The translations under genes and the position numbers were made by a program. Below the pieces are notes generated by a model. The model did not search any database. It saw only the letters and a program-made list of their open reading frames with translations, and had not been told where the DNA came from. From an uncultured Hyphomicrobiales bacterium (lineage in GTDB: Bacteria; Bacteroidota; Ignavibacteria; Kapaibacteriales; UBA2268), in NCBI GenBank assembly GCA_964509335.1, contig CAZDXB010000007.1, forward strand, positions 44,882 to 108,881: a stretch of DNA of 64,000 nucleotides, read 5' to 3'. This document shows positions 1,343-52,543 of the stretch, piece after piece (position 1 is the first letter of the stretch; every line of letters begins with the position of its first letter).

Positions 1343-1343
1343 A

Positions 1344-14410: not shown

Positions 14411-14422
14411 AAGGATTTTGCT

Positions 14423-15361: not shown

Positions 15362-15468
15362 CAAAATATGCCCGTAATACCTACTTTGATTTTTTGACAA
15401 AGATGAAAGATAATAAAGCAAAAAATCGCCGAAAATTAATACGTTTGGAGTAAGACGGAAAAGCGAAG

Positions 15469-15903: not shown

Positions 15904-15924
15904 ATAAAAACAAGTAATTGAAAT

Positions 15925-17235: not shown

Positions 17236-17250
17236 ATATTATATCGACTC

Positions 17251-17296
17251 GTTACGTCCGCTCCGGCGACGGAAAGCATACTAAGACGCTCCGCGT
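17251..17296 (+). repeat. REP-like element family 1, copy c (degenerate)
   Basis: CGTTACGTCCGCTCCGGCGACGGAAAGCATACTAAGACGCTCCGCGT, 16 bp after the nupC stop. Confidence 0.65.
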
Positions 17297-17331
17297 TGGT
17301 AGAGCCGAGCCGCTAACCAAAACAGTAGAAC

Positions 17332-17423
17332 GGGCTTTCTAGCCTGATTATTATACCTTTTTATTGTTTTTTTTATTGCTCAAGCTAGGAAGCTTGAGCT
17401 ACTTTTGGAGATGTTATTACGCG
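17332..17423 (+). repeat. ~95-bp repeat family 5 (GGGCTTYCTAGCCTG...CTCAAGCTRGGAAG.TTG.GCTACTTT.GAGA.ATRTTATTACG), copy A; contains terminator-like hairpin GCTCAAGCTAGGAAGCTTGAGC (17378-17399)
   Basis: Aligns at ~75 % with 56238-56330. Both copies lie just downstream of a + strand gene stop. The internal perfect 22-bp hairpin is followed by ACUUUUGG. Confidence 0.65.
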
Positions 17424-17427
17424 TCTT

Positions 17428-17451
17428 TTTCCGAAATTGCAATTTCGGAAA
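17428..17451. repeat. Hairpin repeat family 2 copy (TTTCCGAAATTGCAATTTCGGAAA)
   Basis: Perfect palindrome. Confidence 0.7.
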
Positions 17452-17594
17452 GAGAGAATGGAACCCGCCCTTACTTTTATGTATTTCACAGCTTTATAGC
17501 TTATTAACAAATTTTTCCTTAACTTACGCCTTCAAGAATTCTGAAAAAATTACGATAACTATACTTATAATATGTGATTCTAAAGAATTTGACT

Positions 17595-31644: not shown

Positions 31645-34035
31645 ATGCGAAAGATGAAAAATAAAAGCTTGACTGGGGCTATAATCGCGATTATAGTAAC
31701 GGCGATTTGTATTTTTCAAACGCCGTTGTTAGCGAAAGGGCGCTTGGATAGTTTGACCAAGTCGCTTCAAGCCGCTGATTACGAGGACAGCGCCGAGATA
31801 TATAATGAAATATCCGAAAAGTATTTAGCCGAATCCCCCAAAAAGAGCATAGCTTTCGGCAAAAAGGCTTTGATGGTCGCCGAAAGAAACAACGACGAAG
31901 CCTTAAAAGCCAGAGCCTATATGTCTATCGGAGCCGGGTTCGAGTTTCAAGAGCAATACGATTTGGCTTTGTCTTATTACAAAGACGCTTTGTCGATTCA
32001 AAAGAAAATTGGCGACCAAAAAGATATTTCGAGGTCTCTAAACAATATCGGGGTTTTATATCAAAAAGCGGGGAATTTAGATTCAGCCGCCAAATATTAT
32101 GAAATAGCCTTGAATATTAAAGAGAAATTTAGCAATTACGAAGAGATAGCTAAAACGCTATATAACTTGGGTTCGGTTTATTCAATAAAGGGAGAGTATA
32201 ACAAAGCCATAGAATTTTTTAATAGACTGCTTAAAATACAAAAGAGACTTTCGAACAAAGAAGAACTCGCGAATGTTCACAACTACTTAGCCTATTCTTA
32301 CCAAAAAGTTGGCAAATACGACGCCGCTTTAAACAATTATTTGTCTGAATTGAAATTACGAGAGGAACTGAATCAAACCGAAAACGTCGAGAGATTCTTC
32401 TCGAAAATCGGGAAAATATACTACCAGATGCAGAATTACGAGAAGGCTATCGAATATTATAACAAAGCTTTGTTGATTGTTAAAGATAAAGACGAGGAGA
32501 TGGAAACGGCGAAGACTCTATCGAATCTAGGCAACGTTTATTACGAGGCAAAAGACTTTCGGGAAGCTTTGGAATACTATAAAAAATCGTTAAAAATAAC
32601 GGAGGACAAAGAGCAGTCCAGCGAAGACTTTAAATTGAGCGACAACGCCTTAAGGGGCAAGGCAATTCTTCTTAACAACTTGGGTTTGGTTTATAAAAAT
32701 TCCGGCGATTACGAAAAAGCGCTAGTTTATTGCAAAAGAGCAATTGAACTGAAAGACTCGATAAGCGAAGACAGCGACATTTTCTATCCGCTCACAAGCT
32801 TAGCCGAGATTTATTTGAAATTGGACAAACCCCAAGAAGCGCTAAATAACCTCGAAAAATCACTCGATATAGCCGAGCGAAAAGACAATATAAATTTAAA
32901 GAAAATCGCCCGAAAATTGCTCTACGAAGTTTACGCGAAAATCGGCGATTACGAACATGCTCTTGAAAACCATAAGAAATACTCCGCTCTAAAGGACAGC
33001 ATCTTGAACAAAACGACTAATAAGATAATTTCGGAGATGCAGGTCAAATACGAGACGAAAAGAAAAGAGCAGGAAAACAAAGCTCTGAAACGCGTAAACG
33101 AGACTCAGCGAAATTATTTTATAGTAATATCCGCTCTGATACTAATTATTTTAGGCGTTCTATATAGTAGATACAGAGGCAAGCAAAAAGCCAACAAGAT
33201 GTTGCGCGATATGAACAAGCAAATCAAAAAGCAGCACGGCGAGTTAGAATACATGTTTTCGCAATTGCAAGCGAAAGAAGAGCGATTGCGAGAAGCCAAC
33301 GCCACAAAAGACAAATTCTTTTCAATAATAGCGCACGATTTGAAGAATCCCTTGCAAGCTATAACCTTGTCGGCGGATATGCTGAAGAACAAATATAGAT
33401 ACATGGAAGCCGAGCAATTGGTTTCGCTAATCGGTAACATCAATAACGCCGGCGAGCATCTGTCCTCGCTTTTGGAAAATCTGCTGCAATGGTCGAGAAC
33501 GCAGAACGGAAAAATCAAGTATTATCCAGAGGAAATAGATTTAAAGGTCGTGGCGAAAGAGAACGTACAACTGATTTCCGCTTACGCCGAAAAGAAAGGC
33601 GTAAAAGTAAAAAGCGACATCGCCGCTCAAAAGAGAGCTTTTATCGACAAAAACATGATAAGCACCGTATTCCGCAATTTGATTTCCAACGCCGTTAAAT
33701 TTACCGAGGAAGACGGAGAGGTCAACTTGTCGGTAAACGAAAAAGATTTGTTTTACGAGGTGGCGGTAAAGGACACCGGAGTCGGCATAAGCGAAAAAGA
33801 CTTAGATACATTGTTTAGAATAGACGCTCATCGCACAACCAAAGGCACCCGCGACGAAAAAGGCACTGGCTTGGGCTTGATTTTATGCAAAGAATTCGTC
33901 GAGATGAACGGCGGAAGGATTTGGGCTGAAAGCGAGCTTGGCGAAGGCTCGACATTCTATTTCACCGTCCCGAAATTTATGAAAGACAAAAACAAAGGAC
34001 CGAGAGACGACGTTAATATCGTTAATATGAATTAA
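31645..34035 (+). CDS. TPR-repeat sensor histidine kinase (signal peptide, ~12 TPR units, TM, HisKA, HATPase_c; no receiver)
   Basis: 796 aa. Repeated A..YY..AL.I....G TPR pattern. TM NYFIVISALILIILGVLY. H-box FFSIIAHDLKNPLQAI. G-boxes DTGVGIS and GTGLGLILCKEFVEMNGGRIWAESE. Confidence 0.8.
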   Translation: MRKMKNKSLTGAIIAIIVTAICIFQTPLLAKGRLDSLTKSLQAADYEDSAEIYNEISEKYLAESPKKSIAFGKKALMVAERNNDEALKARAYMSIGAGFEFQEQYDLALSYYKDALSIQKKIGDQKDISRSLNNIGVLYQKAGNLDSAAKYYEIALNIKEKFSNYEEIAKTLYNLGSVYSIKGEYNKAIEFFNRLLKIQKRLSNKEELANVHNYLAYSYQKVGKYDAALNNYLSELKLREELNQTENVERFFSKIGKIYYQMQNYEKAIEYYNKALLIVKDKDEEMETAKTLSNLGNVYYEAKDFREALEYYKKSLKITEDKEQSSEDFKLSDNALRGKAILLNNLGLVYKNSGDYEKALVYCKRAIELKDSISEDSDIFYPLTSLAEIYLKLDKPQEALNNLEKSLDIAERKDNINLKKIARKLLYEVYAKIGDYEHALENHKKYSALKDSILNKTTNKIISEMQVKYETKRKEQENKALKRVNETQRNYFIVISALILIILGVLYSRYRGKQKANKMLRDMNKQIKKQHGELEYMFSQLQAKEERLREANATKDKFFSIIAHDLKNPLQAITLSADMLKNKYRYMEAEQLVSLIGNINNAGEHLSSLLENLLQWSRTQNGKIKYYPEEIDLKVVAKENVQLISAYAEKKGVKVKSDIAAQKRAFIDKNMISTVFRNLISNAVKFTEEDGEVNLSVNEKDLFYEVAVKDTGVGISEKDLDTLFRIDAHRTTKGTRDEKGTGLGLILCKEFVEMNGGRIWAESELGEGSTFYFTVPKFMKDKNKGPRDDVNIVNMN

Positions 34036-34195: not shown

Positions 34196-34869
34196 TTAAG
34201 GTGACAGGCGCTAACGATAGGCGGATAACCGACACGCTTTAGCGGTCGGATATCCTTTTTCGGCGATATCGAGCGATGGCAAATAGTTAAAGAGACTGTC
34301 TCGAAAGCAATAAATTCATACACGGGGGGCAAGCCCCGTGTGCTTCCAAAGTAAATCAGCGTAAAGCGATGGAATATAAACTTATCAGTCAATATTGAAA
34401 GGACGCATCGGGGCTAGCCCCGATGTAATATTTAAGTTTTTTAGGCAGTCGCTTCAGTTGTCGGCTTTCGTCAAGCGGCTTCTTAGCGTTAGCGGAAAGC
34501 TAAAGCTTTCCGTTTCCTTGGATTGCGAAGACGGGGGCGTCTTCGCTACTCTGTTTTGAAAAAATAAAAATAATATTTGGATTGTATAAATTTTGTTTTT
34601 ATATTTGTATTGGAATGTTATAAGTTCATATATATATATGATTTACAAAAACAAATAGAGGAGGCGTAAATTTGCCGGACATAATAGTTATAGAATGCCA
34701 AAGATTAAAACTGCCAAAATAAAGGACCGGCGAGAGTAAGCCGCGTCGCCGGTCCAATTATTGCGTCAACGCGCGTTCCCGAGTTTAAGATGTTATATTC
34801 GCGTTATAACTGCGGCTCGGGAACGCCGCCTATAATAACAATTACAAATTTAATAAAAAGGAAAGAGTT
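34196..34869 (+). promoter_or_regulatory. Long conserved non-coding leader, copy 1: ~100-bp conserved block (34196-34300), ~260-bp hairpin-rich unique segment, then ~310-bp block (34560-34869) with AT-rich promoter-like region, SD-preceded 16-codon uORF (34672-34722) and two GC-rich stem-loops (34724-34755; 34773-34826)
   Basis: 34560-34886 is ~95 % identical to 38566-38891, and 34196-34300 is ~85 % identical to 38336-38440. Hairpins GGACCGGCGA-N12-TCGCCGGTCC and GCGTTCCCGAG-N32-CTCGGGAACGC are identical in both copies. The uORF AGAGGAGG-7nt-TTG is MPDIIVIECQRLKLPK. Confidence 0.6.
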
Positions 34870-35457
34870 ATGAAAAAGATAATTTTGTTAATAATAGGTT
34901 TAATGTTTTTATCGTTTGTAATTTTGAAATCGCAACCAGCTTGCGAGCCTTGTTCATCTCAAACTACTTGGGCAAATGCACCTGTTAGTGTTTTACACGT
35001 TGTAATATCTGGTTCGGGATGCGAATTTGACGTTGAATACCAAACAATATTCTGCCTGACAGATGGAACTTGTAATTTTAGAATATTAAAACTCTACAAT
35101 ATTTTGGAGGCTTGCGACGGTTATGGTCCATTGGAATTACTAGAACAAGCGGCGCTGCAAATTATAAAAAACGATGGTATGTTCAAACAATGCTGGCCAT
35201 CTGGCTCTGGAGATTGTGTAGAACAAACTAGAGAGTGGTCCGCGGCTTGCTGGAAGTGGAAAGGAAACGTTGGTCCAGGACCGGGAACTACAGCTACGCT
35301 TAAGCCTTGCGAAACAGAGTCCTGTTGCGAATCCTATTATATGATTTGTAATGAAGGAGGAGCAATTATTGTTTATAAAACATATACAGAGGCAACTCAT
35401 CCTTGCGTGAATCCCGGTCCTGAGTGCTTTATAAGATGTGATTCTGGAGAAAAATAA
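34870..35457 (+). CDS. Cysteine-rich secreted protein (195 aa, ~19 Cys), uncharacterised family; paralog of 38875-39450
   Basis: Signal peptide MKKIILLIIGLMFLSFVILKS. C.PC near the mature N-terminus and the motif GCEFDVEYQTIFC match C.C and HCVFEAYYC in the paralog. The first 17 nt of the CDS are identical to the paralog, as part of the duplicated leader. Confidence 0.6.
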   Translation: MKKIILLIIGLMFLSFVILKSQPACEPCSSQTTWANAPVSVLHVVISGSGCEFDVEYQTIFCLTDGTCNFRILKLYNILEACDGYGPLELLEQAALQIIKNDGMFKQCWPSGSGDCVEQTREWSAACWKWKGNVGPGPGTTATLKPCETESCCESYYMICNEGGAIIVYKTYTEATHPCVNPGPECFIRCDSGEK

Positions 35458-35467
35458 GGAGTAAAAT

Positions 35468-35992
35468 ATGAAAAAAATAATGTATATAATCGTGATGGCG
35501 TTAATGTTAACGATTATTTCGTCGGAGCAAAAATTAGACGCCAAAACAATATCGTTTGACGAAATTAAATACAAAACGTTTATTTATTATAACTTAGAAG
35601 ATAATTATGTTAAAAGATTTTACGAAGGATATTCTCTTAAAGAATACTTGCCGGTTAAAAAAGTAAAAGAGATAAAAAATAATCTGGAAACAATAAGGAA
35701 TGATAGCCAAGCTAAAATAGAAAATTTCGATTGTTTCAACGTCGATATAAGAATTTATCCGAATCCCGCTAGTAGTTATTTTAACGTTTCGCTAAATTCT
35801 GACGACGATATTAAGGAAGTGAAGATAGAGATAATAGACAAATTGGGAAGAACTATTCGCGTTTACAATCGCGAAGGATTGAAAGGAAAAAATAAAGTTA
35901 GAATAGATTTAAGCGGCGTTGAGAAAGGTAGCTACATAGTTAGAGCGGCAATAGGCTCGGCGATGAAAACGGCAAAATTAATCGTTTATTAG
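35468..35992 (+). CDS. Small protein consisting mainly of a T9SS C-terminal sorting domain
   Basis: 174 aa, signal peptide. The C-terminal ~80 aa IRIYPNPASSYFNVSLN...IEIIDKLGRTIRVYN...IDLSGVEKGSYIVRAAIGSAMKTAKLIVY matches the T9SS type-A CTD pattern. Confidence 0.6.
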   Translation: MKKIMYIIVMALMLTIISSEQKLDAKTISFDEIKYKTFIYYNLEDNYVKRFYEGYSLKEYLPVKKVKEIKNNLETIRNDSQAKIENFDCFNVDIRIYPNPASSYFNVSLNSDDDIKEVKIEIIDKLGRTIRVYNREGLKGKNKVRIDLSGVEKGSYIVRAAIGSAMKTAKLIVY

Positions 35993-36062
35993 AGAAGGAT
36001 AAAAGGGGAGGGAATAAATTCTCTCCCCTCGAATTTTCAATAAAAATCGGAGGCTTAATAAA

Positions 36063-38219
36063 ATGAAACGAAATATAATGTTATCAATATTAATATTTAC
36101 CGCTTCTTTCGCCGTTTGTTTTTCCCAGTTAGTTCCAAAATGGGAAATTGGCGCAGCGTCATTTACTCATAATGAATACAGATACGACGGATACCAATTT
36201 AATAAAATAGCGGGAACGAGTGAAAACGATATTATCGTTTTAGGTCAAAGTTACAATGCTGAAAATGGTTATTTTCCTGCAATTTGGCGTTTTAAAAATA
36301 AAGCCGACGAAAGAGAAATATTATATACAGACACAACTAAACAAGATAAAGGCCCCGATATCGCTACTCACGAGTTTAGGTCAATCGCGAAACCCGCACA
36401 TAACTACATAATCGCCGTCGGGGATTCTAACAAATATCAAGGAGAGTTTAAAGTCGAAGGAAAATTCGGCGAAGCTTGGCAAGAGTTTTATTTTAGAACT
36501 GGTTTTATGTTAATCTCAACCGACGGCGGCGAAAGTTGGAATAAAACAACGCTCGATTCTAACACCAAGTTAAACGAGGTAAGAATGCTCGATAACGACT
36601 ATGGGGTAATACTCGAGGAAGGTTGGGAGAATTATTACAACCAAAGAGAATTAATAAATAACGACACTTTGCTAATAACTAAAGACGGATGGAAAACATA
36701 CGAACAAATAAAACTTCCAGAAACAATAGAATATCCGGACGATATTTTCATTTTATCAAAGGATACGTTGGCTATTTTATGCTGGGACGCGGACACAAAA
36801 CGAACGTTTATTATTTTTTCCTACGACGGCGGCAAAAATTGGGAAGACGAATTTTACTTCGACGAAACCGTTCGTATTCAGGATATTGAATTTATAGGAA
36901 ACAAAGCTTACGCCGTTGGATGGTACGAACCGAGTTTATTGTCCGACACCGTTACTAATCCTTATGTTGATATTTCCGTTCAATTTCCTTATATCGCTTA
37001 TAGCGAAAATCGCGGACGTTCTTGGAGAAAACTCGAAAGCTTTCCAGTAGAAATTAACGATATAATTAAAGATTACGGACATAGGTTATACAGCGTTGAT
37101 TTTTGCGACAGTATAAACGGTATCGTAAGCGGATTTAGCGACAGTGCGAATCCTTACGTTTTTAAAACGACCGACGGCGGCGAAAGTTGGGAACGAGAAT
37201 ATTTGCCCTTTAGTTATCACAATCAAGCTTTGCTTATGAATATATATTTTCCGAGAAAAAATTACGCTCTAGTTTTTAATCAATCCAGATATGTTTACAA
37301 ATATGAAGGCGATAAACTTTTGGCTATGCCGAAATTTTATAAATTTAGCAACGTTCCAATAGAGAATTTGAAATTGAGATGGGCGTCGATAGAAGGGGCT
37401 AAAAATTATAGAATAAAAATTGACAGCACGAGAAAATGGTTTAGCGAATCTACCGGAATTAAAACCTATCCCGAGCCGGATTTCGAAAGTCCAATTATCG
37501 ATACTACAATAGCAGATACGTCTGTACTATTTGAGAAACTTATGTACGAATCGCGCATAGTCGCTTTTGTGAAAGCTATCGGCGAGTCGAGAGAAAGTTA
37601 CTGGCGTCGCTATATATTTGTAACTAATACTAGAGAAAATTATTTATATCAACCGAAGTTTGTATTTCCTAAATCTGTTACGATTATACGTGAATCGAGA
37701 GCGGAATTTAAATGGCGCGCTGTTAAGCCCGCAACCAAATATTACTTGACCATAGAAAATAAAGCTAACAGAGAAGTAATATTCAGGGATACGTTATCAG
37801 CCGTAGATACTAGCGTCGTAGTAATCGGTTTCGAGCCGAACACGGGTTATATGGCGCGTTTAGAAGCGACGAGAGGAAATGAATCATCCGGGGACTTAGC
37901 TTTTTTTATAACGGCGACGGAGTTGCCTGTTAGAGAGCGCAAAGAATACGAACCGATAACGAGTTTACGTATTTACCCTAACCCGACTTATTCTAGTATT
38001 AATCTTTCCGTGAATTTAAAAAGCCGAAGCAAAATTGAAATAGATTTGATAAATAGTTGGGGTTCAAAAATTGACAGGATATTTGGCGGTTATCAAACTG
38101 ACGGTTGTCATACTTTCCGCCATGCGCCGGAACCGGATTTGCCATCGGGAACGTATTGGATACGAGCGACTATTGACGGAGAGAAGCAAGTAGCAAAGCC
38201 GGTTGTGATATTAAAATAG
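36063..38219 (+). CDS. BNR/Asp-box repeat beta-propeller protein with FN3-like domains and T9SS C-terminal sorting domain
   Basis: 718 aa, signal peptide. Asp-box repeats STDGGESWNKT, SYDGGKNWEDE, TTDGGESWERE. FN3-like segments (KLRWASIEGAKNYRIKID; EFKWRAVKPATKYYLTIEN). C-terminal LRIYPNPTYSSINLSVN...VVILK CTD. Confidence 0.7.
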   Translation: MKRNIMLSILIFTASFAVCFSQLVPKWEIGAASFTHNEYRYDGYQFNKIAGTSENDIIVLGQSYNAENGYFPAIWRFKNKADEREILYTDTTKQDKGPDIATHEFRSIAKPAHNYIIAVGDSNKYQGEFKVEGKFGEAWQEFYFRTGFMLISTDGGESWNKTTLDSNTKLNEVRMLDNDYGVILEEGWENYYNQRELINNDTLLITKDGWKTYEQIKLPETIEYPDDIFILSKDTLAILCWDADTKRTFIIFSYDGGKNWEDEFYFDETVRIQDIEFIGNKAYAVGWYEPSLLSDTVTNPYVDISVQFPYIAYSENRGRSWRKLESFPVEINDIIKDYGHRLYSVDFCDSINGIVSGFSDSANPYVFKTTDGGESWEREYLPFSYHNQALLMNIYFPRKNYALVFNQSRYVYKYEGDKLLAMPKFYKFSNVPIENLKLRWASIEGAKNYRIKIDSTRKWFSESTGIKTYPEPDFESPIIDTTIADTSVLFEKLMYESRIVAFVKAIGESRESYWRRYIFVTNTRENYLYQPKFVFPKSVTIIRESRAEFKWRAVKPATKYYLTIENKANREVIFRDTLSAVDTSVVVIGFEPNTGYMARLEATRGNESSGDLAFFITATELPVRERKEYEPITSLRIYPNPTYSSINLSVNLKSRSKIEIDLINSWGSKIDRIFGGYQTDGCHTFRHAPEPDLPSGTYWIRATIDGEKQVAKPVVILK

Positions 38220-38239
38220 CTTCGAATATCATTAAACTC

Positions 38240-38313
38240 TTCCGTCCGCTCCAGCGGCGGAACGCATATTGAGACGCTCCGCGTCGTTTTTTCTTTGCCG
38301 CGCAGAGCGCGGG
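38240..38313 (+). repeat. REP-like element family 1, extended copy d (three hairpins: GTTCCG..CGGAAC, GACGCTCCGCGTC+T6, CCGCGCAGAGCGCGG)
   Basis: Begins 21 bp after the 36063-38219 stop. The long form is shared with copy e. Confidence 0.8.
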
Positions 38314-38335
38314 TTATTTTGGAATGAGGGGGAAG

Positions 38336-38874
38336 AGGGCGCTAACGATAGGCGGTAAACCGACACGCCTTAGCGGTCGGCAATCGTATCGCGGCAATAT
38401 TGAGCGCTGGCAAATAGTTAAAGCTATCGGTTGCCGAAAGATTACTTTGAAATATCGCATAGTTTTTGTGCGTATAAACCAATATAATATAAAATATTTA
38501 TAGAATATCTATGTTCACATGTGAACATTTTCAGCCCGCTATGTTCATATGTGAACATAGCTTAAATAATAAAAATAATATTTGGATTGTATAAATATTG
38601 TTTTTATATTTGTATCGGAATGTTATAAGTCCATATATATATATGATTTACAAAAATAAATAGAGGAGGCGTAAATTTGCCGAACATAATAGTTTTAGAA
38701 GGGCGAAGATTAAAACTGCCTAAATAAAGGACCGGCGAGAGTAAGCCGCGTCGCCGGTCCAATTATTGCGTCAAAGCGCGTTCCCGAGTTAAAGATGTTA
38801 TATTCGCGTTATAACTGCGGCTCGGGAACGCCTCCTATAATAACAATTGCAAATTTAATAAAAAGGAAAGAGTT
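38336..38874 (+). promoter_or_regulatory. Conserved non-coding leader, copy 2 (100-bp block 38336-38440; unique AT-rich segment with two perfect palindromes at 38511-38528 and 38539-38560; 310-bp block 38566-38874 with uORF 38677-38727 MPNIIVLEGRRLKLPK and the same two stem-loops)
   Basis: See copy 1. Palindromes ATGTTCACATGTGAACAT and CTATGTTCATATGTGAACATAG, read directly. Confidence 0.6.
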
Positions 38875-39450
38875 ATGAAAAAGATAATTTTAATATCGAT
38901 AACAATAGTCTTATTAGGATTAACTTTTAGCGCTAATAAGCTTAACGCACAGTGCGATTGCCCTCAAGACATACCGCCAACGAATATACCTTGGACTGTG
39001 GAAGGTCCCCATTATATCTTCATATACGACGACGAAGGTGACCATTGCGTTTTTGAGGCATATTATTGCTGGCGTAAAATTCTAGATTATTATCCGTCGC
39101 CGGAAATTCAAGTTGTTGTTTGTAAATATAGTCCTACGGAAGATTGCAACGAGAATTTTAATCTTTCGGTTTGGGAAATATATAAAAAATTGGGAATAAA
39201 AATAATTGAATTAAATCCAGATAATTTAGATTGGCCCGCTCCACCTTGTCCATATGGTTATCCATATTACTCAGTAGTAACTTTCGGTTGCTATGATGTA
39301 TATGACGAAACCCCGTGCGGCGGTTTAGTGTATTGTAAATACTTATTTGAAGTTTGTATGAGTGCGGGTCAAAGGATAACTAAGCCATTAGGAGCGACGA
39401 CGGTTGGAGACGAATGTCCGGTCGGGTGCGATAACAAATGCGGCGATTAA
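38875..39450 (+). CDS. Cysteine-rich secreted protein (191 aa, ~18 Cys), divergent paralog of 34870-35457
   Basis: Signal peptide MKKIILISITIVLLGLTFSANKLNA. Mature QCDCPQD...; HCVFEAYYC; C-terminal ECPVGCDNKCGD. Confidence 0.6.
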   Translation: MKKIILISITIVLLGLTFSANKLNAQCDCPQDIPPTNIPWTVEGPHYIFIYDDEGDHCVFEAYYCWRKILDYYPSPEIQVVVCKYSPTEDCNENFNLSVWEIYKKLGIKIIELNPDNLDWPAPPCPYGYPYYSVVTFGCYDVYDETPCGGLVYCKYLFEVCMSAGQRITKPLGATTVGDECPVGCDNKCGD

Positions 39451-39476
39451 TGATTGTAATAAAAAAGGAACTTGCT

Positions 39477-41954
39477 ATGTCGATTACAAAATATATTTTA
39501 ACAACGATAACAATAACTATAATCTTAGTTAATCCGTTGAAAGCCGAAAAGAAAATTGTTTGGCAAAATACAATATCGCGAATTTTGGATTGTCAAGTTA
39601 TCGATTCGCAGAATTACGTGATAGTCGGCGACGACGGCAAGATAATCTCGACGAGCGACGGCGGTTTTACTTGGCGATGGTTAGAATGCGGTTTGAGAAA
39701 TATATTTTACGGCGTAGATTTCCTCGACAAGAATACGGGCGTCGTTGTCGGCGACGGCGGCGCCTTCACCGCCACTACCGACGGCGGCGAGACTTGGCGT
39801 ACAGAAACTATAGATACGACCGCGTTTTTTTCGGTCGAAATGAAGAGCAAAAACGCGATATTCGCAAGCGGAATGAATACTTGTATTTACAAATCGAGCG
39901 ATTTCGGCGAGACTTGGAAAAAGGTTTTTAGCGGCGATAACGCCGTATTAGAAAACTATTTTTTCTTTAAAGACAGCATAAAAACAATAAAAGCCTATTC
40001 AAACAATAGCGATATTCATTTTGTAAACGACTCTATCGGTTTTGCCGCGGGCGTCGGACCTTTCGTTTTAAAAACCGAGGACGGCGGGGAGAGCTGGCGC
40101 AAAGTTCTGCAAAAAGGAGACAGCGCTCTATTTACGGATATCGACTTTTACGACGATAAACGCGGCGTAGCGGCGGGAGGCGATTTCGTATATAACGATT
40201 CGTTAAACTATGGGTATTTAAAAGCGAAGGCGTATTATACATTGGACGGAGGAGAAAACTGGATAGAAATGGATGCGCCGGGAGCGGGGCATTATATAGG
40301 CGCGAAGATGTTCGATAGCTCTTATATATATTTACTCGGCGGAACTCATTGGTCTCATATAACTAAAGATTTCGGTAACAGTTGGCGAAAAATTAAGTTT
40401 ATCGATTACAAATACTTCAAAAACAATCTGGACACTGATAATTATAAAGATACGACCGCGGCTTGGGGATCTGATTATACGCCGACAGCTATGTCCTCCG
40501 ATAACGAAGGGGTTATATTGTCTATCGACAAACAAGGAGTGATAATGAAATCGACCAATTTCGGCATAAATTATCAAACTTTAAAGAAGTTTGAAATGTA
40601 TGAATTTATTGGACATTATTTTAGACGCATTCACGGTTTTGCATCGCTTTCGGAAAACAAAGCGTTATTTTTTGGCGAGGAAAGCAAAGTTTATAGAACT
40701 TCCGACGGGGGAACAAGCTGGGACATTATTTTCCCTCGTTATGAAATAAAAAACTGGGATGATAAAGAATTTTGGAGTAGTATTTCATCGTCCAACGCTT
40801 CTTTTTATACTAGTTATTTACCCGATAGCGCGAACGGTTTCATTGCAGGCAAACTCGACGGTTGGAAGCCGTCAAATACGATATTTACTTCCGACGGCGG
40901 CGAAACTTGGGATATCGTAAATAATTTGAAATCGAAGAGCCTTAGTTTTATATCAAGAGATACAGGATTCGCAATAGGTTACGATTCATTACTTTTAAAA
41001 ACTGAAAATTTTGGGCTTAGTTGGGATACTCTGAGAATTTTTCATAGATCGGGCGATTATAATGAACGGCAACTTAACAATCGACCTCTACAAATAGTTT
41101 TTCCCGACTCAAGCGCCGGATATCTAATCATTAATTCAGCTTATATAAAAACAAACGATACGATTACTTATCCTACGGGTTATAAAGGGATCTCTAAGCT
41201 TTATAGAACTACAGACCGCTGGCAAACTTTCGATTCAATTTTTTGCGAGGAAACTCGCTGGCCCTTCGATAAAATTCACTTTATGGATAAAAATACGGCG
41301 TATATTTTTAGCGGCGACCATAAAACAATCTATAAAACGACCGACGGTTGCAAGACTTGGGATACGCGTATGCTTCCGGGAAATTACCATTTCGTAAACG
41401 ACGTTCATTTTATAGACGAAAATTTCGGGGTCGCCGTGGGGCGGCAGGACACAATATTTACTACGCGAGACGGCGGAAAATCTTGGGAAATAAAAGTTCT
41501 GCCTTTTAATAGAAATTATTTTGGCGATAAAAGGGGGGAGGATTTATATGATTTTATAGAAATAACCGAAGCAAAAAACGGTGATTTGTTTATTGTTGGC
41601 AAGGGCAGGGTTGTTAGAGGGTTAATAATAAACGACACGACGACGGTAGAGGGCCAAACGGAAGGCGGCAGGTATTGTCAGTTTTATTACATCACGATTA
41701 TCCCAAATCCTGTTAAGGGAACAGCGAAAATAAATTTATATGGATTGACACAGGCTAAGGGGCATAAATTGAGCTTAAAAATATACGATATAAACGGAAA
41801 TTTCGTTAAAGATATATCTAAGAAGGCGAACGCCAACAGCGATGGCAAAACCGCCGAGTTTGAAGTTAATTTGCACGGTTTGCCGAGCGGCATATATTTT
41901 ATTCAATTGGAGAGCAACAGCCGGACTAGATCCCGGAAGTTTATAAAGTATTAA
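39477..41954 (+). CDS. Large BNR/Asp-box repeat (Ycf48/sortilin-like) double beta-propeller protein with T9SS C-terminal sorting domain
   Basis: Track start 39438; ATG 39477 gives signal peptide MSITKYILTTITITIILVNPLKA. At least 12 Asp-box-like repeats (SDGGFTWRW, TDGGETWRT, SDFGETWKK, EDGGESWRK, LDGGENWIE, SDGGTSWDI, SDGGETWDI, TDGCKTWDT, RDGGKSWEI ...). C-terminal IIPNPVKGTAKINLYGL...FIKY CTD. Confidence 0.7.
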   Translation: MSITKYILTTITITIILVNPLKAEKKIVWQNTISRILDCQVIDSQNYVIVGDDGKIISTSDGGFTWRWLECGLRNIFYGVDFLDKNTGVVVGDGGAFTATTDGGETWRTETIDTTAFFSVEMKSKNAIFASGMNTCIYKSSDFGETWKKVFSGDNAVLENYFFFKDSIKTIKAYSNNSDIHFVNDSIGFAAGVGPFVLKTEDGGESWRKVLQKGDSALFTDIDFYDDKRGVAAGGDFVYNDSLNYGYLKAKAYYTLDGGENWIEMDAPGAGHYIGAKMFDSSYIYLLGGTHWSHITKDFGNSWRKIKFIDYKYFKNNLDTDNYKDTTAAWGSDYTPTAMSSDNEGVILSIDKQGVIMKSTNFGINYQTLKKFEMYEFIGHYFRRIHGFASLSENKALFFGEESKVYRTSDGGTSWDIIFPRYEIKNWDDKEFWSSISSSNASFYTSYLPDSANGFIAGKLDGWKPSNTIFTSDGGETWDIVNNLKSKSLSFISRDTGFAIGYDSLLLKTENFGLSWDTLRIFHRSGDYNERQLNNRPLQIVFPDSSAGYLIINSAYIKTNDTITYPTGYKGISKLYRTTDRWQTFDSIFCEETRWPFDKIHFMDKNTAYIFSGDHKTIYKTTDGCKTWDTRMLPGNYHFVNDVHFIDENFGVAVGRQDTIFTTRDGGKSWEIKVLPFNRNYFGDKRGEDLYDFIEITEAKNGDLFIVGKGRVVRGLIINDTTTVEGQTEGGRYCQFYYITIIPNPVKGTAKINLYGLTQAKGHKLSLKIYDINGNFVKDISKKANANSDGKTAEFEVNLHGLPSGIYFIQLESNSRTRSRKFIKY

Positions 41955-41974: not shown

Positions 41975-42051
41975 CGTTCCGCCCGCTCCAGCGGCGGAAC
42001 GCATACCCAGACGCTCCGCGTCGTTTTTTCTTTGCCGCGCAGAGCGCGGGG
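41975..42051 (+). repeat. REP-like element family 1, extended copy e
   Basis: GTTCCGCCCGCTCCAGCGGCGGAACGCATACCCAGACGCTCCGCGTCGTTTTTTCTTTGCCGCGCAGAGCGCGGG, 21 bp after the 41954 stop. Confidence 0.8.
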
Positions 42052-42153
42052 AATTTATGAGGCGAAACACTGATTCAGCTTACCCTCCTTCCAAAACTCC
42101 GATTTTGGAAGGTTATTTATATCAATTTGTCGCGGTGTCGTTTAATGACGCGC

Positions 42154-43866: not shown

Positions 43867-43893
43867 AGACAAACAAAATCGCTACGATTAAAC

Positions 43894-43943
43894 GACGCGG
43901 AGCGTCTCAATATGCGTTCCGCCGCGGGAGCGGGCGGAACGAG
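43894..43943 (-). repeat. REP-like element family 1, copy f (reverse orientation)
   Basis: Reverse complement reads GTTCCGCCCGCTCCCGCGGCGGAACGCATATTGAGACGCTCCGCGTC. It lies ~80 bp downstream of the minus-strand metalloprotease stop, in matching orientation. Confidence 0.8.
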
Positions 43944-47337: not shown

Positions 47338-48447
47338 TTAACGCCAATTAATAAGCATCGAAAAACGCATAGTGTTCGCTAGCGGATGGTTCGCTTCGAC
47401 AGTGTTAATGTAACTGAAGTCAAGCTGGAACATATCGTAACGAACTCCGGCGCCGAAATTATAAAACTTTCTGTTGCCTAAGGTGGAAGGCTCCCAGAAA
47501 TAGCCTCCTCTAAGAGCGACGAGATGTTGGTACCAATACTCCAATCCGAAAGAAACTTCCGCTCCGGGATTTTCCCAGCCGGTGATTAAAGATTTCGGCA
47601 ACGGGTCGGAGTCGATAGAATCTCTTTTGACTAATAGCTTCGAAACGTCAAAAGCGAACTTCAATTCGTTAAATTCGTTTTCGAATACTTTAATTGCCGT
47701 GCCGACTCTCAAAGTAGTGGGAAGCGGGTCGGCTTCGTTTCTGTAAGTCATTTTCGGACCTACGTTCTGGATATTAAAACCTAAAGCGATTCTGTCCCGA
47801 ATAGGAAGTCCGAAAACGTTCAAATCTTGCGGCGACCACAGTATGCCCAAATCAAAAGCGCCGCTGATTCCGGTGCCGGCTCCTTCGTTCTGTCCGGGAG
47901 CGGCGGGCGCTAAGTTCGATTGTATATATTTAAGTTGAACTCCGACAGCTAAGTCTCTCGCCACTATTGTTCCGTAAGCGATATTAAAAGCGAATTCGCT
48001 CGAAAGGAATTTTCCGAGAACTCTGCCGCTTTCGTGAGTTCTGGTAAATTCGCCTAAGTTCATAAAAGTAAAATTAGCGGCGACGGTTCCGTCGAGTTCT
48101 TCGAAGAATTGACCGAATGTTCCGTAACTGTAAAATAAATCAGCGTTAAATTGCGGCAGCCATCGCGAAAAGGCGAACGCTATTTGCCTCCAAGGGCTGT
48201 AGTCGTCCGGGTTTGTCGGATTCACGAAATAGTCGTGAAACCCTAAACCGGCGGGATTCCAGTAAATAGCGTTTATATCGTCGGCTATTGCCGTGCCTAC
48301 CTCGCCCATTCCGCTAGCTCTGGCGTCGGGTGAAATCAATAGGAAGGGAACGGCGGCGCCGCCCGCTTGCGATTTCGCTACGTTTGTGGAAAACCCAAAA
48401 ACTAGTAGGGCTATTAGTATGATTTTTAGTTTGCTTAACCGTTTCAT
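47338..48447 (-). CDS. porV: T9SS outer-membrane shuttle protein PorV (LptO) family, FadL-like beta-barrel
   Basis: 369 aa, signal peptide. N-terminal AAVPFLLISPDARASGMGEVGTAIADD, as in PorV-family proteins. Immediately downstream of a C25-peptidase PorU-like gene, the canonical porU-porV order. Ends in aromatic ...LINWR. Confidence 0.65.
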   Translation of the reverse strand: MKRLSKLKIILIALLVFGFSTNVAKSQAGGAAVPFLLISPDARASGMGEVGTAIADDINAIYWNPAGLGFHDYFVNPTNPDDYSPWRQIAFAFSRWLPQFNADLFYSYGTFGQFFEELDGTVAANFTFMNLGEFTRTHESGRVLGKFLSSEFAFNIAYGTIVARDLAVGVQLKYIQSNLAPAAPGQNEGAGTGISGAFDLGILWSPQDLNVFGLPIRDRIALGFNIQNVGPKMTYRNEADPLPTTLRVGTAIKVFENEFNELKFAFDVSKLLVKRDSIDSDPLPKSLITGWENPGAEVSFGLEYWYQHLVALRGGYFWEPSTLGNRKFYNFGAGVRYDMFQLDFSYINTVEANHPLANTMRFSMLINWR

Positions 48448-48508: not shown

Positions 48509-51500
48509 TTATTTGATAATATTCAAAAAATTTGTTGATTCTACCATAATTCCGTCTTTATTTATCGCTTTTAGACGATAATAATAAGCTCCGCTAGTTA
48601 GATTTTTTCCGTTGTCGTCTTGGCAATTCCAACGTATTTCGGTTTTATATTTCGTTTGCGCTTCGCTCGATAGGGTAGATACGATTCTGCCCAAAGCGTC
48701 GCGCACGGTAATTTCGTAATCGAACGGCGGGTTTATAGTGTGATTAAAACTGAAAGTCAAGCTTGAACTAGCGGGATTTGGATAGGTCGTAAGATTATGA
48801 ATAATCAATCCGTCGCAAGACGCGGTTCTGAAGTAGGTCTCGGTTATCGAAAAGTTGTTGAACACGTCCCAAGCGCGAATTTTTATTTTATGTAGCCCGG
48901 GTTCCAAATCATACAGGATTTTTGTCGCTTCTCCCGAACGTGAATCTCCGAAAGAAGCGGAGAAGTTATCAGTTAAATCGATAGATTTGCGCGCGTCGTC
49001 TATCCAAGCTTCGATATTATGTCCTAAACCTATGCCTGTGGCGTTAATGCCGCTCTCGTCTGATAGCTCGACGATTAGCGTAGGCTCGCAACTAACGTAA
49101 TCGCCGGAAACGAACTCTTTTGAGTCTAAATAAACTTCGATTTCCGGTCCTCTGGAATCTGCGTGTGTGGTAGTATCAAGCCCGTCTATTATAAATTTGC
49201 GAGTGTCGCCTTTAGCAAATCTGTCGTCGTCGGAGTAAGCGTAAACTAAAAGTCTGCCGGGTTCGCCGGAAAAACTAATATCCTTCGGAATAATAAACTC
49301 GCTCGTAAATTTTCCGTTCTTAACTTCGCAGGAGCTTTGGTTTAGCGTTCCGCCGTATTTTGTGAAATGATGAGTCGTGCCGTTCGGAGAGCCGTCGTCT
49401 TCGAAAGCTCTTATTTGTTTGTCGCTATCGAGCATAGTGATTATTGCCGTTCCGTTGAATGTTTCGTCCGTAACGGTTGAAGACGCAGAAGTTACGCTTC
49501 CTTCAATCGTTACTTCCGACAAACCTTTCAATTTAGCCGTGTCTCCTTTTGATACGTTTACGTCGTTAATCTTGTTAATACGAGCGTTGTATTCGGGAAT
49601 TAGTATTTTTATCGTGGGGTCGCCGAGCAAACAGTATTTTTTGTCGTTCCTTTTATACTTTTCGTATTTTGTAATCATATTCACTACGCCTAAAGAGAAA
49701 TATTCGCCCGTTTCTTCGTTTTTTTCGAAGAAATTTCGGTAAAGAGTTTCGTTAAGCCTAGCGTTTGGGTCTGCAAATACGAGTCTCGTCGAAGAGAAAA
49801 CGCCTATGGCTCCGCCTCGCTCGCTAAGCAATAATTCTTCGGCGCCGCTTCTTATCTCCGGCGAATCGAATCGTCCGAAGTCGCAACTGGCGGCGGTGGC
49901 GAAAAATAATTTATCGAGATTAGTGAATTGCGGAATCGTTAAACTCCTCTCTAAGATTTCTTCGTGCGCCCAAACTCTTGGATTTCCGTGTCCAATATAG
50001 CATAAGAATAAGTTGCCGTCGTTATTGGAAGCCGAGAGCATTTCCTGAGTTACGCGCGGTTTTCTTTTGCCGCCGGTAACGCTTTCGCTTGGATATTCTG
50101 CCATATAGATTTTATTTACTCGCAAAAAATTCGGGAGATGATTTCTACATAGCTGTTCAGCGTCGTTTGTATGCAAGGTTCCGTCGGTAGAACCGCTTTT
50201 TTTCCAGCTATCGTCGGCGACGACCGTTATATTAGTTCTCCAAGAGTCCTCGCTCGATTCGTTTTCGTATTTACCGATTTTTTCTATCATCCAATTTCCC
50301 TCGCCGTTGGATTGAACGGGGATTCTGCCCAGCGCTATATCGATTAAGTCGTCGTCGCCCGCTATATTGGCGAAAAAGTCGTCGCTTGTGTAAGAATCAA
50401 TTTCGTCGTAAGAAAAAGAACTATTCGGTATTTGATAAGTCGGCGCGTAATTTTTCTCGTCCGTTCCTATTAACTTATAGTCGTAATGCCCGTCGCCCCA
50501 AAGCAAAACATATTTCGGCTTGCGCTCCCAACGGTCGAAAGCGTCCGCTATAAAATCTCTTATCGCCGTCGGGTCGGGCGTTCCTGAATTATATTCGTTG
50601 TAAATTTGAGTCAATGTCGCTATAAAAACTGAAATGTTCGAGCGCTCTTCTCTATATTCTTTATAATTGTTCGCCGATTCGAGTAAGTCTTTATGCGTTA
50701 TTAAAATTAAGTCAGAGCCTTTGCTCTCGCCCCTTAAGTTAGCGAATTCGGCTATTTGCAGAGACGGTTCTTTTATTTTTGAAGAAATGAAAAACTTCTT
50801 AGGACGATTTGCTTCCGTCTCGTTTTTAAAGCGGAACATTCCGCCGGTAACCGCTTTGTTTTCGATTAGTTTCGGATTCGCCGCGTCGGTTGTTTCAAAA
50901 CCGTAGATTTCCCCGCCGGAAAAGCCGTTTGTTAAGTATTCAACTACTCCGTCGTTTTCGGGATTTGAAAAGAAACTTAATTCATTGTTTATCGGCTCTA
51001 GATAGGCGGGATAGTGGATTTCATACCAATCGAAGTATCCTTGCGCTCCGCCGTCGCCGGAATAGTTTGTGTATTCAAATTTCAACGAGCTTCTGTTGTC
51101 AGCCGATACGTAGGAGGCGGGAGCTTTCGCGGTAACTTCTTCTCGTTCGGCGTCGTCGTGTCCCGAAGTTATTTTTAAATGCGCCTCGCATAACTTGTTG
51201 TCGTTTTCGTAGATGTCGAAAGTTCCAGTGTAGGGAGCGCGGTGCGCCACTGAAAAGCGGTAGAATATTTCGCCGTCTCTTTTCAAATTATTTAGTCGCT
51301 CGACAAACACAGCCGGCAACAAGTTCCTGCCGAACCAAGCCCTTCCCGAACCCGCGATATAAGCGTTGTGCATCTCTTCTTCGTAAAATATTCTTCTGGT
51401 ATAGGTATTCGGTTCGTAATCGGCTTCATATGTCGGTTGAACAATCGGTTCGGCTCTTTTGCCCGAATCGCCCGACCAAGTCAACATATAATAAGAGTTC

Positions 51501-52543
51501 TCGCTGAAATGGTTTATGTAATGACGGAATCCATTTGCGGAGTCGTATTTAAAACCCGAAGCGGGCGAGGCGTAAAAGATTATTTTATCCAGCGTTCCGT
51601 CGCCTTTTTTTTTGACGATTATTTCTTGTTCGTTCATTTCGTTGTTTACCGCGTCGGTTACGTTTTCGCTTAATTGCAAACCGCCGTTTCCGTAAATCTT
51701 TATTTTATGGATGTCTTCTTTGGGTATTAAAAATCCCAAGTTGTTTAATTTTCCTGCGGTTATTTGATAAACGCCCTCTTCCTCGATTTTTATTTTTACC
51801 CAGTCAGCGTCTGTTTCCGATTGAGTGTGGGATTTTTTAAGCGACAAGTCCGATTCTAAATTTTCTTTTATCAGCCAAGATTTAGTTTCGTTGTGGTTTA
51901 AGGAAAGGGGCGGGTCGAATATTCGTTCATTATTATAATAAGCGCCGCCTTCAGATTGGCTGTTGAATTTAATCTCGACGGTAATTTTTTTGGGGATTAA
52001 TATCGCTTTTTGTTCGGAAGAATATTTAGCGGCAATCAATTGAAGTTTTGCTAAGTGGCGATGACGGGAAATCCCCGAATACGATAATTTCGCCCAAACG
52101 ATATTGTTGTTTCGCCTGTAATCTTGCTCGTCGGTTATATAAATAGCGTGATAATTCCCGTCCAATTTATAGCGCATAGGGTAGGGAACGATTTTAACCG
52201 GAATTTTCTTAAACCCTGAAATATCATAATCGATTAACTCGAATCCTTCGGGATTTGGAACGGTTATGAAACTTTCGCCGACATACGTAGTCGGCGCGCC
52301 CGCTCCGCCGTTAAGAGAAGTCGCGTTGGTGAATTTTGGACGGACTAATCTTTGCCCGTCGGCGGCGTCGATAGTGTCTAACGCGACAAAATCAGGCTTG
52401 AAAACAAGCGTCAAACTTTGCTTGTTGGAATGAACGACTTGCCAGCCGTCTTTTGCCGATGATATAGAATAAGCGCTCGCGGTTAAAAAAGTAAAAGCCG
52501 CGACTATATATAGAGCCTTTTTAAGTTTACTTAAAATCTTCAT
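48509..52543 (-). CDS. porU: T9SS C-terminal signal peptidase PorU-like (gingipain-family C25 peptidase domain + CTD)
   Basis: 1344 aa, signal peptide. C25-like catalytic region with His (LFLCYIGHGNPRVWAHEEIL) and Cys (FFATAASCDFGRFD). YVLLWGDGHYDYK region. C-terminal CTD-like ...LIIHNLTTYPNPASSSLTFSFN...FLNIIK. Confidence 0.7.
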   Translation of the reverse strand: MKILSKLKKALYIVAAFTFLTASAYSISSAKDGWQVVHSNKQSLTLVFKPDFVALDTIDAADGQRLVRPKFTNATSLNGGAGAPTTYVGESFITVPNPEGFELIDYDISGFKKIPVKIVPYPMRYKLDGNYHAIYITDEQDYRRNNNIVWAKLSYSGISRHRHLAKLQLIAAKYSSEQKAILIPKKITVEIKFNSQSEGGAYYNNERIFDPPLSLNHNETKSWLIKENLESDLSLKKSHTQSETDADWVKIKIEEEGVYQITAGKLNNLGFLIPKEDIHKIKIYGNGGLQLSENVTDAVNNEMNEQEIIVKKKGDGTLDKIIFYASPASGFKYDSANGFRHYINHFSENSYYMLTWSGDSGKRAEPIVQPTYEADYEPNTYTRRIFYEEEMHNAYIAGSGRAWFGRNLLPAVFVERLNNLKRDGEIFYRFSVAHRAPYTGTFDIYENDNKLCEAHLKITSGHDDAEREEVTAKAPASYVSADNRSSLKFEYTNYSGDGGAQGYFDWYEIHYPAYLEPINNELSFFSNPENDGVVEYLTNGFSGGEIYGFETTDAANPKLIENKAVTGGMFRFKNETEANRPKKFFISSKIKEPSLQIAEFANLRGESKGSDLILITHKDLLESANNYKEYREERSNISVFIATLTQIYNEYNSGTPDPTAIRDFIADAFDRWERKPKYVLLWGDGHYDYKLIGTDEKNYAPTYQIPNSSFSYDEIDSYTSDDFFANIAGDDDLIDIALGRIPVQSNGEGNWMIEKIGKYENESSEDSWRTNITVVADDSWKKSGSTDGTLHTNDAEQLCRNHLPNFLRVNKIYMAEYPSESVTGGKRKPRVTQEMLSASNNDGNLFLCYIGHGNPRVWAHEEILERSLTIPQFTNLDKLFFATAASCDFGRFDSPEIRSGAEELLLSERGGAIGVFSSTRLVFADPNARLNETLYRNFFEKNEETGEYFSLGVVNMITKYEKYKRNDKKYCLLGDPTIKILIPEYNARINKINDVNVSKGDTAKLKGLSEVTIEGSVTSASSTVTDETFNGTAIITMLDSDKQIRAFEDDGSPNGTTHHFTKYGGTLNQSSCEVKNGKFTSEFIIPKDISFSGEPGRLLVYAYSDDDRFAKGDTRKFIIDGLDTTTHADSRGPEIEVYLDSKEFVSGDYVSCEPTLIVELSDESGINATGIGLGHNIEAWIDDARKSIDLTDNFSASFGDSRSGEATKILYDLEPGLHKIKIRAWDVFNNFSITETYFRTASCDGLIIHNLTTYPNPASSSLTFSFNHTINPPFDYEITVRDALGRIVSTLSSEAQTKYKTEIRWNCQDDNGKNLTSGAYYYRLKAINKDGIMVESTNFLNIIK

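Follow-up and report, generated by a model that had tools for sequence, protein, structure and literature searches.

Two tandem operons on a 64,000-nt stretch of contig CAZDXB010000007.1, referred to here as the window, open with a nearly identical 328-nt block that extends from the promoter into the first codons, followed by genes that have diverged strongly. Each operon, or cassette, encodes a cysteine-rich (Cys-rich) secreted protein together with one or more proteins linked to BNR repeats and to the type IX secretion system (T9SS). The expression modules of these old, very diverged tandem paralogues are probably kept near-identical by gene conversion, a reading to which a probability of roughly 0.7 is assigned. 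It rests on the sharp limits of the shared block and on a comparison within and between genomes, in which leaders and flanking genes show opposite patterns. The two copies of the block are:

34559 to 34886, forward strand: shared expression module, copy 1, comprising an A-rich upstream stretch, a promoter, a 5' untranslated region (5'UTR) of about 255 nt, a ribosome-binding region, and the ATG with five further codons.
38564 to 38891, forward strand: shared expression module, copy 2, 95.4% identical to copy 1 and sharp-edged.

The copies agree at 313 of 328 positions, with 15 differences and no gaps at an offset of 4005 nt, as found by repeat search, MAFFT and blastn. An earlier reading of the letters alone (the sequence-only reading) had put the identity of the two leaders at about 95%, which formal alignment bears out; its coordinate for the second copy was 1–2 nt off. 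Measured in 20-nt bins, identity lies at 0.25–0.30 up to position 34558 and at 0.85–1.0 over 34559–34878, and then falls to 0.65, 0.5 and 0.2. The left edge is a jump from 0.30 to 0.95 at 34559, and on the right identity declines from 1.0 to 0.2 across 34887–34938. This right edge lies 17 nt within the coding sequence (CDS), just as the sequence-only reading had noticed, with ATGAAAAAGATAATTTT (34870–34886) common to both copies. Only two copies of the leader are found in the window by blastn, both exactly at the stretch from promoter to start codon and both in the same type of operon. The 15 substitutions are distributed as a uniform rate would predict (largest gap, P = 0.79). Logan contig L001 (SRR7048228), an independent assembly, reproduces cassette 1, and it starts precisely 30 nt short of where the shared block ends, the point at which a de Bruijn graph with k = 31 is expected to branch at a repeat edge.

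The genes that follow the two modules are these:

34870 to 35457, forward strand: Cys-rich secreted protein of cassette 1, 195 aa with 16 cysteines, a divergent member of an uncharacterised family.
35468 to 35992, forward strand: extra small T9SS substrate, 174 aa, present in cassette 1 only (Por_Secre_tail, Pfam E = 1.7e-15).
36063 to 38219, forward strand: BNR-repeat protein of cassette 1, 718 aa, with BNR/PSII_BNR/Sortilin domains.
38875 to 39450, forward strand: Cys-rich secreted protein of cassette 2, 191 aa with 14 cysteines, of the core type that has orthologues in other genomes.
39438 to 41954, forward strand: BNR/Ycf48-like propeller of cassette 2, an open reading frame (ORF) of 838 aa (Pfam: PSII_BNR E = 4.7e-29, Por_Secre_tail E = 2.4e-12).

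The strong divergence of these paralogues had been remarked on from the letters alone; they prove to be 22–24% identical and still homologous. The Cys-rich proteins of 195 and 191 aa match by BLASTP at E = 0.011 over the N-terminus only, with a global identity of 22%, and the cassette 1 protein aligns with a family profile built without it at an HHalign probability of 95.9% (E = 6e-9), so that by profile comparison the pair appear to be true distant homologues. The BNR proteins of 718 and 838 aa share about 24% identity in their best segment (40 bits). The 838-aa protein also contains BNR and Sortilin domains, and its true start is likely to be the ATG at 39477. Export by the T9SS, which had been claimed for the BNR proteins of both cassettes, is backed by a clear sorting domain in the 838-aa protein; in the 718-aa protein the domain stays below threshold (25.4 bits for Por_Secre_tail, where the cut-off is 27, and 20.7 for TIGR04183, where it is 23). 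No Pfam or NCBIfam match was found for the cassette 1 Cys-rich protein. The AlphaFold2 model of its cassette 2 counterpart reaches a pLDDT of 90.5 and matches nothing in the PDB, and this partner protein may have a previously unseen fold.

The Cys-rich family came to light because a full HMMER search was used: with a small profile, it recovered 37 representatives of about 190 aa. Word-based protein searches with the Cys-rich proteins returned only themselves and one Logan homologue, and a pattern scan of metagenome contigs, based on a six-sequence alignment, returned two loci. Genomic contexts were examined for 9 of the 37 representatives. In every context long enough to judge, a BNR/PSII_BNR gene follows the Cys-rich gene, mostly with a Por_Secre_tail match, and judging from these contexts the pair is a conserved module.

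Tandem arrays of this two-gene cassette also occur in two metagenomic genomes, L085 (a JGI contig) and L091. L085 contains five tandem cassettes, the leaders of which are 88–98% identical over 400–600 nt, with identity ending 14–79 nt into the CDS; among the three Cys-rich proteins of this array, identity is 17–20%. L091 contains two cassettes, with leaders 82–97% identical block by block, identity ending 32 nt into the CDS, and Cys-rich proteins 19% identical. When the 300 nt upstream of the ATG are taken as the leader, for which shuffling gives a baseline of 50.7%, the comparison reads as follows:

Leaders: within a genome, 95% (window), 92–96% (L085) and 78% (L091); between genomes, 46–54%.
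Cys-rich proteins: paralogues within a genome, 17–22%; orthologues between genomes, 37–44% (cassette 2 against L084 and L085C, 44%; against L090, L091a and L089, 37%).
BNR proteins: paralogue, about 24% and 40 bits (838-aa protein against its own neighbour); orthologues, 50–51% (L085C/D) and 46% (L084).

The lower value for the L091 leaders is due to a length-variable (AG)n tract of about 13 repeats in one copy and about 20 in the other (9768–9793 and 12929–12962), a candidate for a slipped-strand variable tract in the 5'UTR. Between genomes the exception is L084 against L085, with leaders 62% identical. Local alignments of leaders across genomes yield promoter-like and start-codon patches only, and a BLAST comparison of the window leader with 26 Kapabacteria/Ignavibacteria loci gave a single match, a look-alike promoter in the Kapaibacterium metagenome-assembled genome (MAG) L009. 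The closest relative of the cassette 2 Cys-rich protein is P0004, at 59% identity, and for the 718-aa protein no orthologue was found in the other arrays (at most 53 bits). Since orthologues of the flanking genes are closer to each other than paralogues are, the duplication is old.

Leaders that are homogeneous within genomes and divergent between them, next to genes that behave in the opposite way, point to concerted evolution in three independent lineages. The sequence-only reading had explained the conserved leader by purifying selection or gene conversion; the second of these is now strongly supported, with near-identity inside each genome, a random level between genomes and the reverse order in the proteins. 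Further traces of recombination are seen in L085 at 13092–17554, where D and E have recently arisen by duplication of cassette C and have both lost the Cys-rich gene from the leader up to the last 33 nt of that gene. The BNR genes of cassettes C–E are mosaic, with an identity of 99% at the 5' end but of 77% in mid-gene; such mosaics bear the apparent signature of recombination and show arrays that seem to be recombinationally active.

According to the proposed mechanism, the 328-bp block would be a complete expression module (sigma-A promoter, structured 5'UTR, ribosome-binding region, ATG and five codons) serving an operon type composed of a Cys-rich secreted protein and one or two T9SS-exported BNR propellers. 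The two operons would be ancient paralogues, with orthologues elsewhere for cassette 2 and none for cassette 1, and each cassette would be transcribed from its own promoter. Non-reciprocal recombination of the RecA type between the tandem direct repeats would homogenise the module, and heterology on both sides, consisting of the spacer on the left and the diverged CDS on the right, would stop the conversion tracts, which would account for the sharp edges and for a shared coding part of just six codons. All cassettes in one genome would thus use the same transcription and translation signals and would presumably be co-regulated, with co-regulation as the likely selected benefit, and the module would still drift fast between lineages. 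The hairpins of the 5'UTR may tune mRNA stability or translation, or may bind a lineage-specific regulator.

The signals within the module are predicted at the following positions:

34576 to 34607, forward strand: Bacteroidota-type promoter, copy 1, TTTG-N20-TATATTTG (-33/-7), at the 5' edge of the block.
38581 to 38612, forward strand: Bacteroidota-type promoter, copy 2, by consensus match.
34724 to 34755 (copy 2: 38729 to 38760), forward strand: leader hairpin 1, a perfect GC-rich stem of 10 bp, GGACCGGCGA / TCGCCGGTCC, found in both the minimum free energy and the centroid structure and free of substitutions between copies.
34773 to 34826 (copy 2: 38778 to 38831), forward strand: leader hairpin 2, with an outer stem of 11 Watson-Crick and 2 G-U pairs and an inner stem of 6 bp.
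34864 to 34886, forward strand: start-site hairpin, weak, 8 bp, in which 34864–34871 (a Shine-Dalgarno-like AGAG and the AU of the start codon) pairs with 34879–34886 (codons 4–6).

Promoters of the -33/-7 type are known from Bacteroidota. The motif TTTG-N19-21-TAnnTTTG occurs five times in the window against 0.88 expected, and its strict form lies 263 nt upstream of the ATG in the window, 292 nt in L085 and 282–285 nt in L091. The transcription start is predicted near 34614 (38619 in copy 2), from which the 5'UTR length of about 255 nt follows. Because it contains a promoter, a 5'UTR and a translation start, the block is regulatory by position. To this extent the earlier suggestion of a cis-regulatory element specific to the operon family holds; as a deeply conserved, specific RNA element it does not.

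The window leaders fold better than dinucleotide shuffles (z = -3.7 and -4.3), as do the leaders of the L085 and L091 lineages (z = -3.3 and -4.8). The predicted fold of the 5'UTR places two GC-clamped hairpins between A-rich single-stranded stretches, and none of the 15 substitutions falls within the 58 predicted stem positions, a marginal deviation (P = 0.05). The start-site hairpin is predicted in both copies, its 3' end coinciding with the last conserved base, and any function it has is putative. An (AT)6 palindrome of equal length in both copies lies at 34627–34640. The leader also contains an upstream open reading frame (uORF) of 27 codons (34790–34873; copy 2: 38795–38878), which starts within the hairpin 2 loop and whose TGA overlaps the main ATG (ATGA). 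Two changes separate the uORF copies, one synonymous and the other non-synonymous, too few to judge coding. Leader peptides were considered and rejected: small leader ORFs are not conserved between lineages, and the two window copies are too alike for a test of coding constraint. An antisense small RNA on the minus strand, consisting of hairpin 1 with a U-run and a TAAATTTG box at 34852–34845, was likewise set aside, since the box is not conserved in L084/L085 and A-rich flanks are general in these leaders. Some function of the leader is likely because long structured leaders of similar length occur in every multi-cassette lineage; that the structured leader itself is functional is plausible but unproven.

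The intergenic regions around the modules contain additional repeats and spacers:

34207 to 34292, forward strand: upstream 86-nt block, copy 1, 86% identical to 38338–38423, folding as an extended imperfect hairpin.
38338 to 38423, forward strand: upstream 86-nt block, copy 2, defined by repeat search, MAFFT and consensus fold.
34293 to 34558, no strand: spacer 1, 266 nt, without similarity to spacer 2, with several GC-rich hairpins, forming the left limit of the identity tract.
34525 to 34546: terminator-like hairpin in spacer 1, by terminator prediction.
38424 to 38563, no strand: spacer 2, 140 nt, AT-rich, unrelated to spacer 1, with two palindromes.
38240 to 38319, forward strand: repetitive extragenic palindromic (REP)-like repeat closing cassette 1, 93% identical to 41977–42056, with terminator-like hairpins.
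41977 to 42056, forward strand: REP-like repeat closing cassette 2, with terminator-like hairpins.

The layout described from the letters alone is largely recovered here: the spacer is indeed variable, a REP element does close both cassettes, and the upstream block announced at about 100 bp is present, with a true length of 86 nt at 86% identity. Its consensus fold has 25 pairs and one G-C to G-U change, tolerated on the forward strand only. This block is a remnant of a formerly homologous intergenic region and is more diverged than the leader (12 differences in 86 positions against 15 in 328; Fisher P = 0.005), which fits separate or rarer conversion, homology now being interrupted by the unrelated spacers.

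In spacer 1, between 34300 and 34558, GC-rich perfect hairpins such as ACACGGGGGGCAAGCCCCGTGT, GCATCGGGGCTAGCCCCGATG and GCGAAGACGGGGGCGTCTTCGC are crowded in an AT-rich background; they are without counterpart in cassette 2 and may be inserted REP-like units or terminators. Spacer 2 contains two perfect 18-nt palindromes, ATGTTCA(C/T)ATGTGAACAT, at 38511–38528 and 38541–38558. These are the only matches in the window (two against 0.19 expected), and cassette 1 has none. The spacing between them is 30 nt, and a further 23 nt separate the end of the pair from the -33 box of cassette 2. They resemble operator sites in tandem, such as a dimeric DNA-binding protein would use, and could add a layer of regulation to cassette 2. 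REP-like copies also occur at 43881–43943 (reverse strand), 3869–3920, 4123–4168 and 17247–17296; the family, 86–96% identical, consists of GC-rich hairpins in intergenic sites, two of which score as intrinsic terminators.

Several points weigh against the gene-conversion reading. Conversion rather than a single copying event is an inferred mechanism, and the two window copies on their own would fit one recent copying event as well as ongoing homogenisation. The promoter and the transcription start are consensus-based predictions in an uncultured, Kapabacteria-like lineage. The 86-nt block, at 86% identity, needs an extra assumption, namely separate conversion tracts or a different constraint. 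The proposed role of the 5'UTR hairpins depends on predicted structure, the avoidance of stems being marginal and the substitutions otherwise even. In addition, the visible part of the genome amounts to 64 kb, and more copies of the leader could exist in other contexts.

A single recent copying of the promoter-leader segment from one cassette to the other, as a case of promoter capture or of a putative mobile promoter, would involve no ongoing homogenisation and would have no selective meaning. It is consistent with the sharp edges, the even substitutions and the divergence of 4.6%, and near-identical upstream regions often form families in the genomes of prokaryotes (PMC3488235). It is nevertheless an unlikely account, since the arrangement has arisen independently in three lineages, at 78–99% identity and in up to five copies, which is hard to explain by isolated accidents, and since the homology of the 86-nt block and other short patches indicates shared ancestry of the whole intergenic region. 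Putative mobile promoters are near-identical upstream regions placed before different genes in one genome (Matus-Garcia, Nijveen and van Passel 2012; PMC3488235). They measure 50–100 nt and precede non-homologous genes, whereas the segment described here spans at least 328 nt, includes a full 5'UTR and start codon, and precedes tandem distant homologues. For this reason common descent with conversion is more likely than mobilisation. The downstream genes, being distant homologues by the HHalign comparison and having the same operon layout, run contrary to the definition of a mobile promoter, and this candidate was rejected.

The near-identity could alternatively reflect a conserved riboswitch-like or attenuator RNA, with purifying selection on structure keeping the copies alike without recombination. 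The good folding of both window leaders, the absence of substitutions from predicted stems and the uORF that begins in hairpin 2 and overlaps the main ATG all agree with such an element. In the pair L084 and L085, moreover, a 10-bp stem in the leader's 3' domain has survived three compensatory pair changes as well as G-U changes, suggesting that some leader structure is probably selected in that lineage. Comparison across genomes nonetheless makes this explanation quite improbable. The sequence-only reading had proposed beforehand to look for the leader at orthologous loci; it is absent there, and at the sequence level the interpretation as a deeply conserved element fails. At orthologous cassettes whose proteins are 37–59% identical, the leader stands at about 51%, which is the shuffle baseline. 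A covariance model of the window hairpins and ribosome-binding region (R2) has no match among 36 related loci, one of the L084/L085 3' domain (R1) gives only E > 3 for the window leader region even with filters off, and each model recovers its own lineage only. The stems, perfectly paired, do not covary between the two window copies.

Searches for known RNA families lead to the same result. Neither the window nor five related loci gave an Rfam match above the gathering threshold; the scan of the window returned only a tRNA and chance matches, and a permissive scan of the leader region with E up to 10 stayed at chance level, its best score being 20.7 bits where 70 are required for gathering. 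Long stable 5'UTRs directly upstream of an operon, in several copies, are a feature shared with Rfam cis-regulatory leaders such as riboswitches, attenuators and T-boxes; unlike these, the present leader has no family match and no structure conserved across lineages. Neither a terminator/anti-terminator alternative nor an intrinsic terminator on the forward strand was found in it. An exact 21-mer from its most conserved part had no match in two public contig collections, of genomes and metagenomes. Single-cassette genomes mostly have intergenic regions of 85–121 nt, the exceptions being L084 (272 nt), L093 (291 nt) and L090 (660 nt). The neighbouring NFACT gene has its nearest relatives in Ca. 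Kapaibacterium MAGs, at no more than 46% identity, and neither the cassettes nor the leader were found at those NFACT-gene loci. Of the causes offered by the sequence-only reading, purifying selection is therefore not supported, the even spread of the substitutions also counting against it. Taken together, the 15 window differences and the comparisons support near-identity by gene conversion, and a deeply conserved riboswitch-like element is not supported.

It could also be supposed that the arrays form a programmed variation system, in which recombination between direct repeats or changes in repeat length add, delete or switch cassettes for surface or secreted proteins, in the manner of the Mycoplasma or Borrelia loci for variable lipoproteins. 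The recent duplications in L085, with the Cys-rich gene deleted in two cassettes, the differing (AG)n lengths in L091, the (AT)6 palindrome of the window leader and the extreme divergence of the secreted cargo proteins are compatible with this idea. Every cassette, however, has a complete promoter of its own, leaving no single expression site; the (AT)6 tract is of equal length in both window copies; and no invertase, recombinase or flanking inverted repeats were found in the window, so that such a system appears highly improbable. Among the window ORFs scanned with Pfam, there was no integrase, recombinase, invertase or transposase, and the repeat search of the window found no inverted repeats around 34559–34886 or 38564–38891. 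Two related candidates were rejected as well: an integron-like array, with no integrase or recombinase found in the window ORFs, a promoter motif in each cassette and homologous operons throughout, and an invertible promoter or shufflon, with neither flanking inverted repeats nor a recombinase found in the window. A dispersed repeat of the MITE or REP type, for which many copies irrespective of gene context would be expected, was provisionally set aside too, the 64 kb showing just the two copies before operons of one type.

In a metagenome-derived contig, the repeat might be suspected of being an artefact of assembly or binning, for instance a collapsed or chimeric MAG repeat. This can practically be dismissed, as the copies differ at 15 positions and have different flanks, cassette 1 appears again in the independent Logan assembly of SRR7048228, which branches exactly at the repeat edge, and unrelated JGI assemblies have the same architecture. 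Contigs L082 and L083, from two sequencing runs, contain the closest cassette 2 homologue (59%) and both begin at the same base, 82 nt before the ATG, being too short upstream to test for the leader. This common start, together with that of L001, suggests that their organism also has a repeated leader that breaks assembly.

Beyond gene conversion itself, it is possible, though doubtful, that the homogenised leader acts as a lineage-specific regulatory platform, made up of a structured 5'UTR with or without an operator, which co-evolves with a dedicated trans-acting factor, and that the arrays, with their rapidly diversifying Cys-rich/BNR cargo pairs, constitute a variable system of T9SS-secreted proteins. 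The regulators encoded directly upstream of the arrays differ: in the window, it is a TPR-HisKA-HATPase sensor kinase (31645–34035), and in L091 an extracytoplasmic function (ECF)-type sigma factor (7951–8550). No regulator upstream of the arrays is common to the lineages.

Other genes of the window were noted in passing. A pair consisting of a WG-repeat gene and a CAP gene (cysteine-rich secretory protein family) lies at 13328–15358, and the same pair adjoins the L085 array (577–2633, reverse strand). About 5 kb downstream of the cassettes, core components of the T9SS are encoded, namely PorV (47338–48447, reverse strand) and a PorU-like C25 peptidase with a T9SS sorting domain (48509–52543, reverse strand). 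At 22706–24555 (reverse strand), an EcoRV-like restriction endonuclease (Pfam E = 2.6e-100) stands beside a D12-class N6-adenine methyltransferase, forming a complete type II restriction-modification pair.

Among known systems, the upstream homology box of the erp (ospE/ospF-related) genes of Borrelia burgdorferi may be regarded as the closest functional analogue of the homogenised module. In that system, a conserved promoter/operator, 5' leader and first codons precede genes for diverse surface proteins, and this 5' module is believed to ensure that they are expressed at the same time and to owe its spread to recombination (PMC10016077). The likeness lies in a shared promoter, leader and first six codons before diverse genes for secreted proteins, and is one of functional analogy rather than homology, the window leader having no sequence homology to the Borrelia element. 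The conserved part in Borrelia includes the whole lipoprotein leader peptide, while here it covers six codons only. The erp copies occupy allelic sites on cp32 prophage plasmids, whereas the cassettes stand in tandem on the chromosome. Operators and their binding proteins are known for erp; the module described here differs further in its long, structured 5'UTR of about 255 nt.

Concerted evolution by gene conversion in tandem gene families, such as rRNA operons and ribosomal DNA (rDNA) intergenic spacers, is defined by sequences that are uniform within a genome and diverged between genomes (PMC3036644, PMC2720389, PMC8022953). Like the leader, the rDNA spacer is regulatory and non-coding, and it changes rapidly from species to species but is uniform within each. 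Unlike in the rDNA and rRNA families, homogenisation is confined here to the regulatory module, the adjoining CDSs are among the most diverged detectable paralogues, and the arrays have two to five members. Concerted evolution of a regulatory module alone is in this sense a further example of an already known phenomenon.

The three arrays illustrate, in replicate, how concerted evolution in bacteria can be confined to a promoter-plus-5'UTR module, with adjoining genes diverged to the edge of detectability. They also call for caution, as non-coding conservation within a genome that exceeds the conservation of the gene is insufficient for calling a new riboswitch-like RNA; it is the comparison of within-genome and between-genome identity that settles the question of conversion versus conserved RNA. 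An uncharacterised but recurrent two-gene module, pairing a Cys-rich protein with a T9SS BNR propeller and expanded in tandem in some lineages, is thereby outlined, offering a possible entry to the diversification of T9SS cargo in Kapabacteria-like organisms. If the idea of a lineage-specific regulatory platform is true, all cassettes of a genome need the leader in its current version, and free-living Kapabacteria-like bacteria would possess a T9SS system resembling the variable-lipoprotein loci of Borrelia or Mycoplasma.

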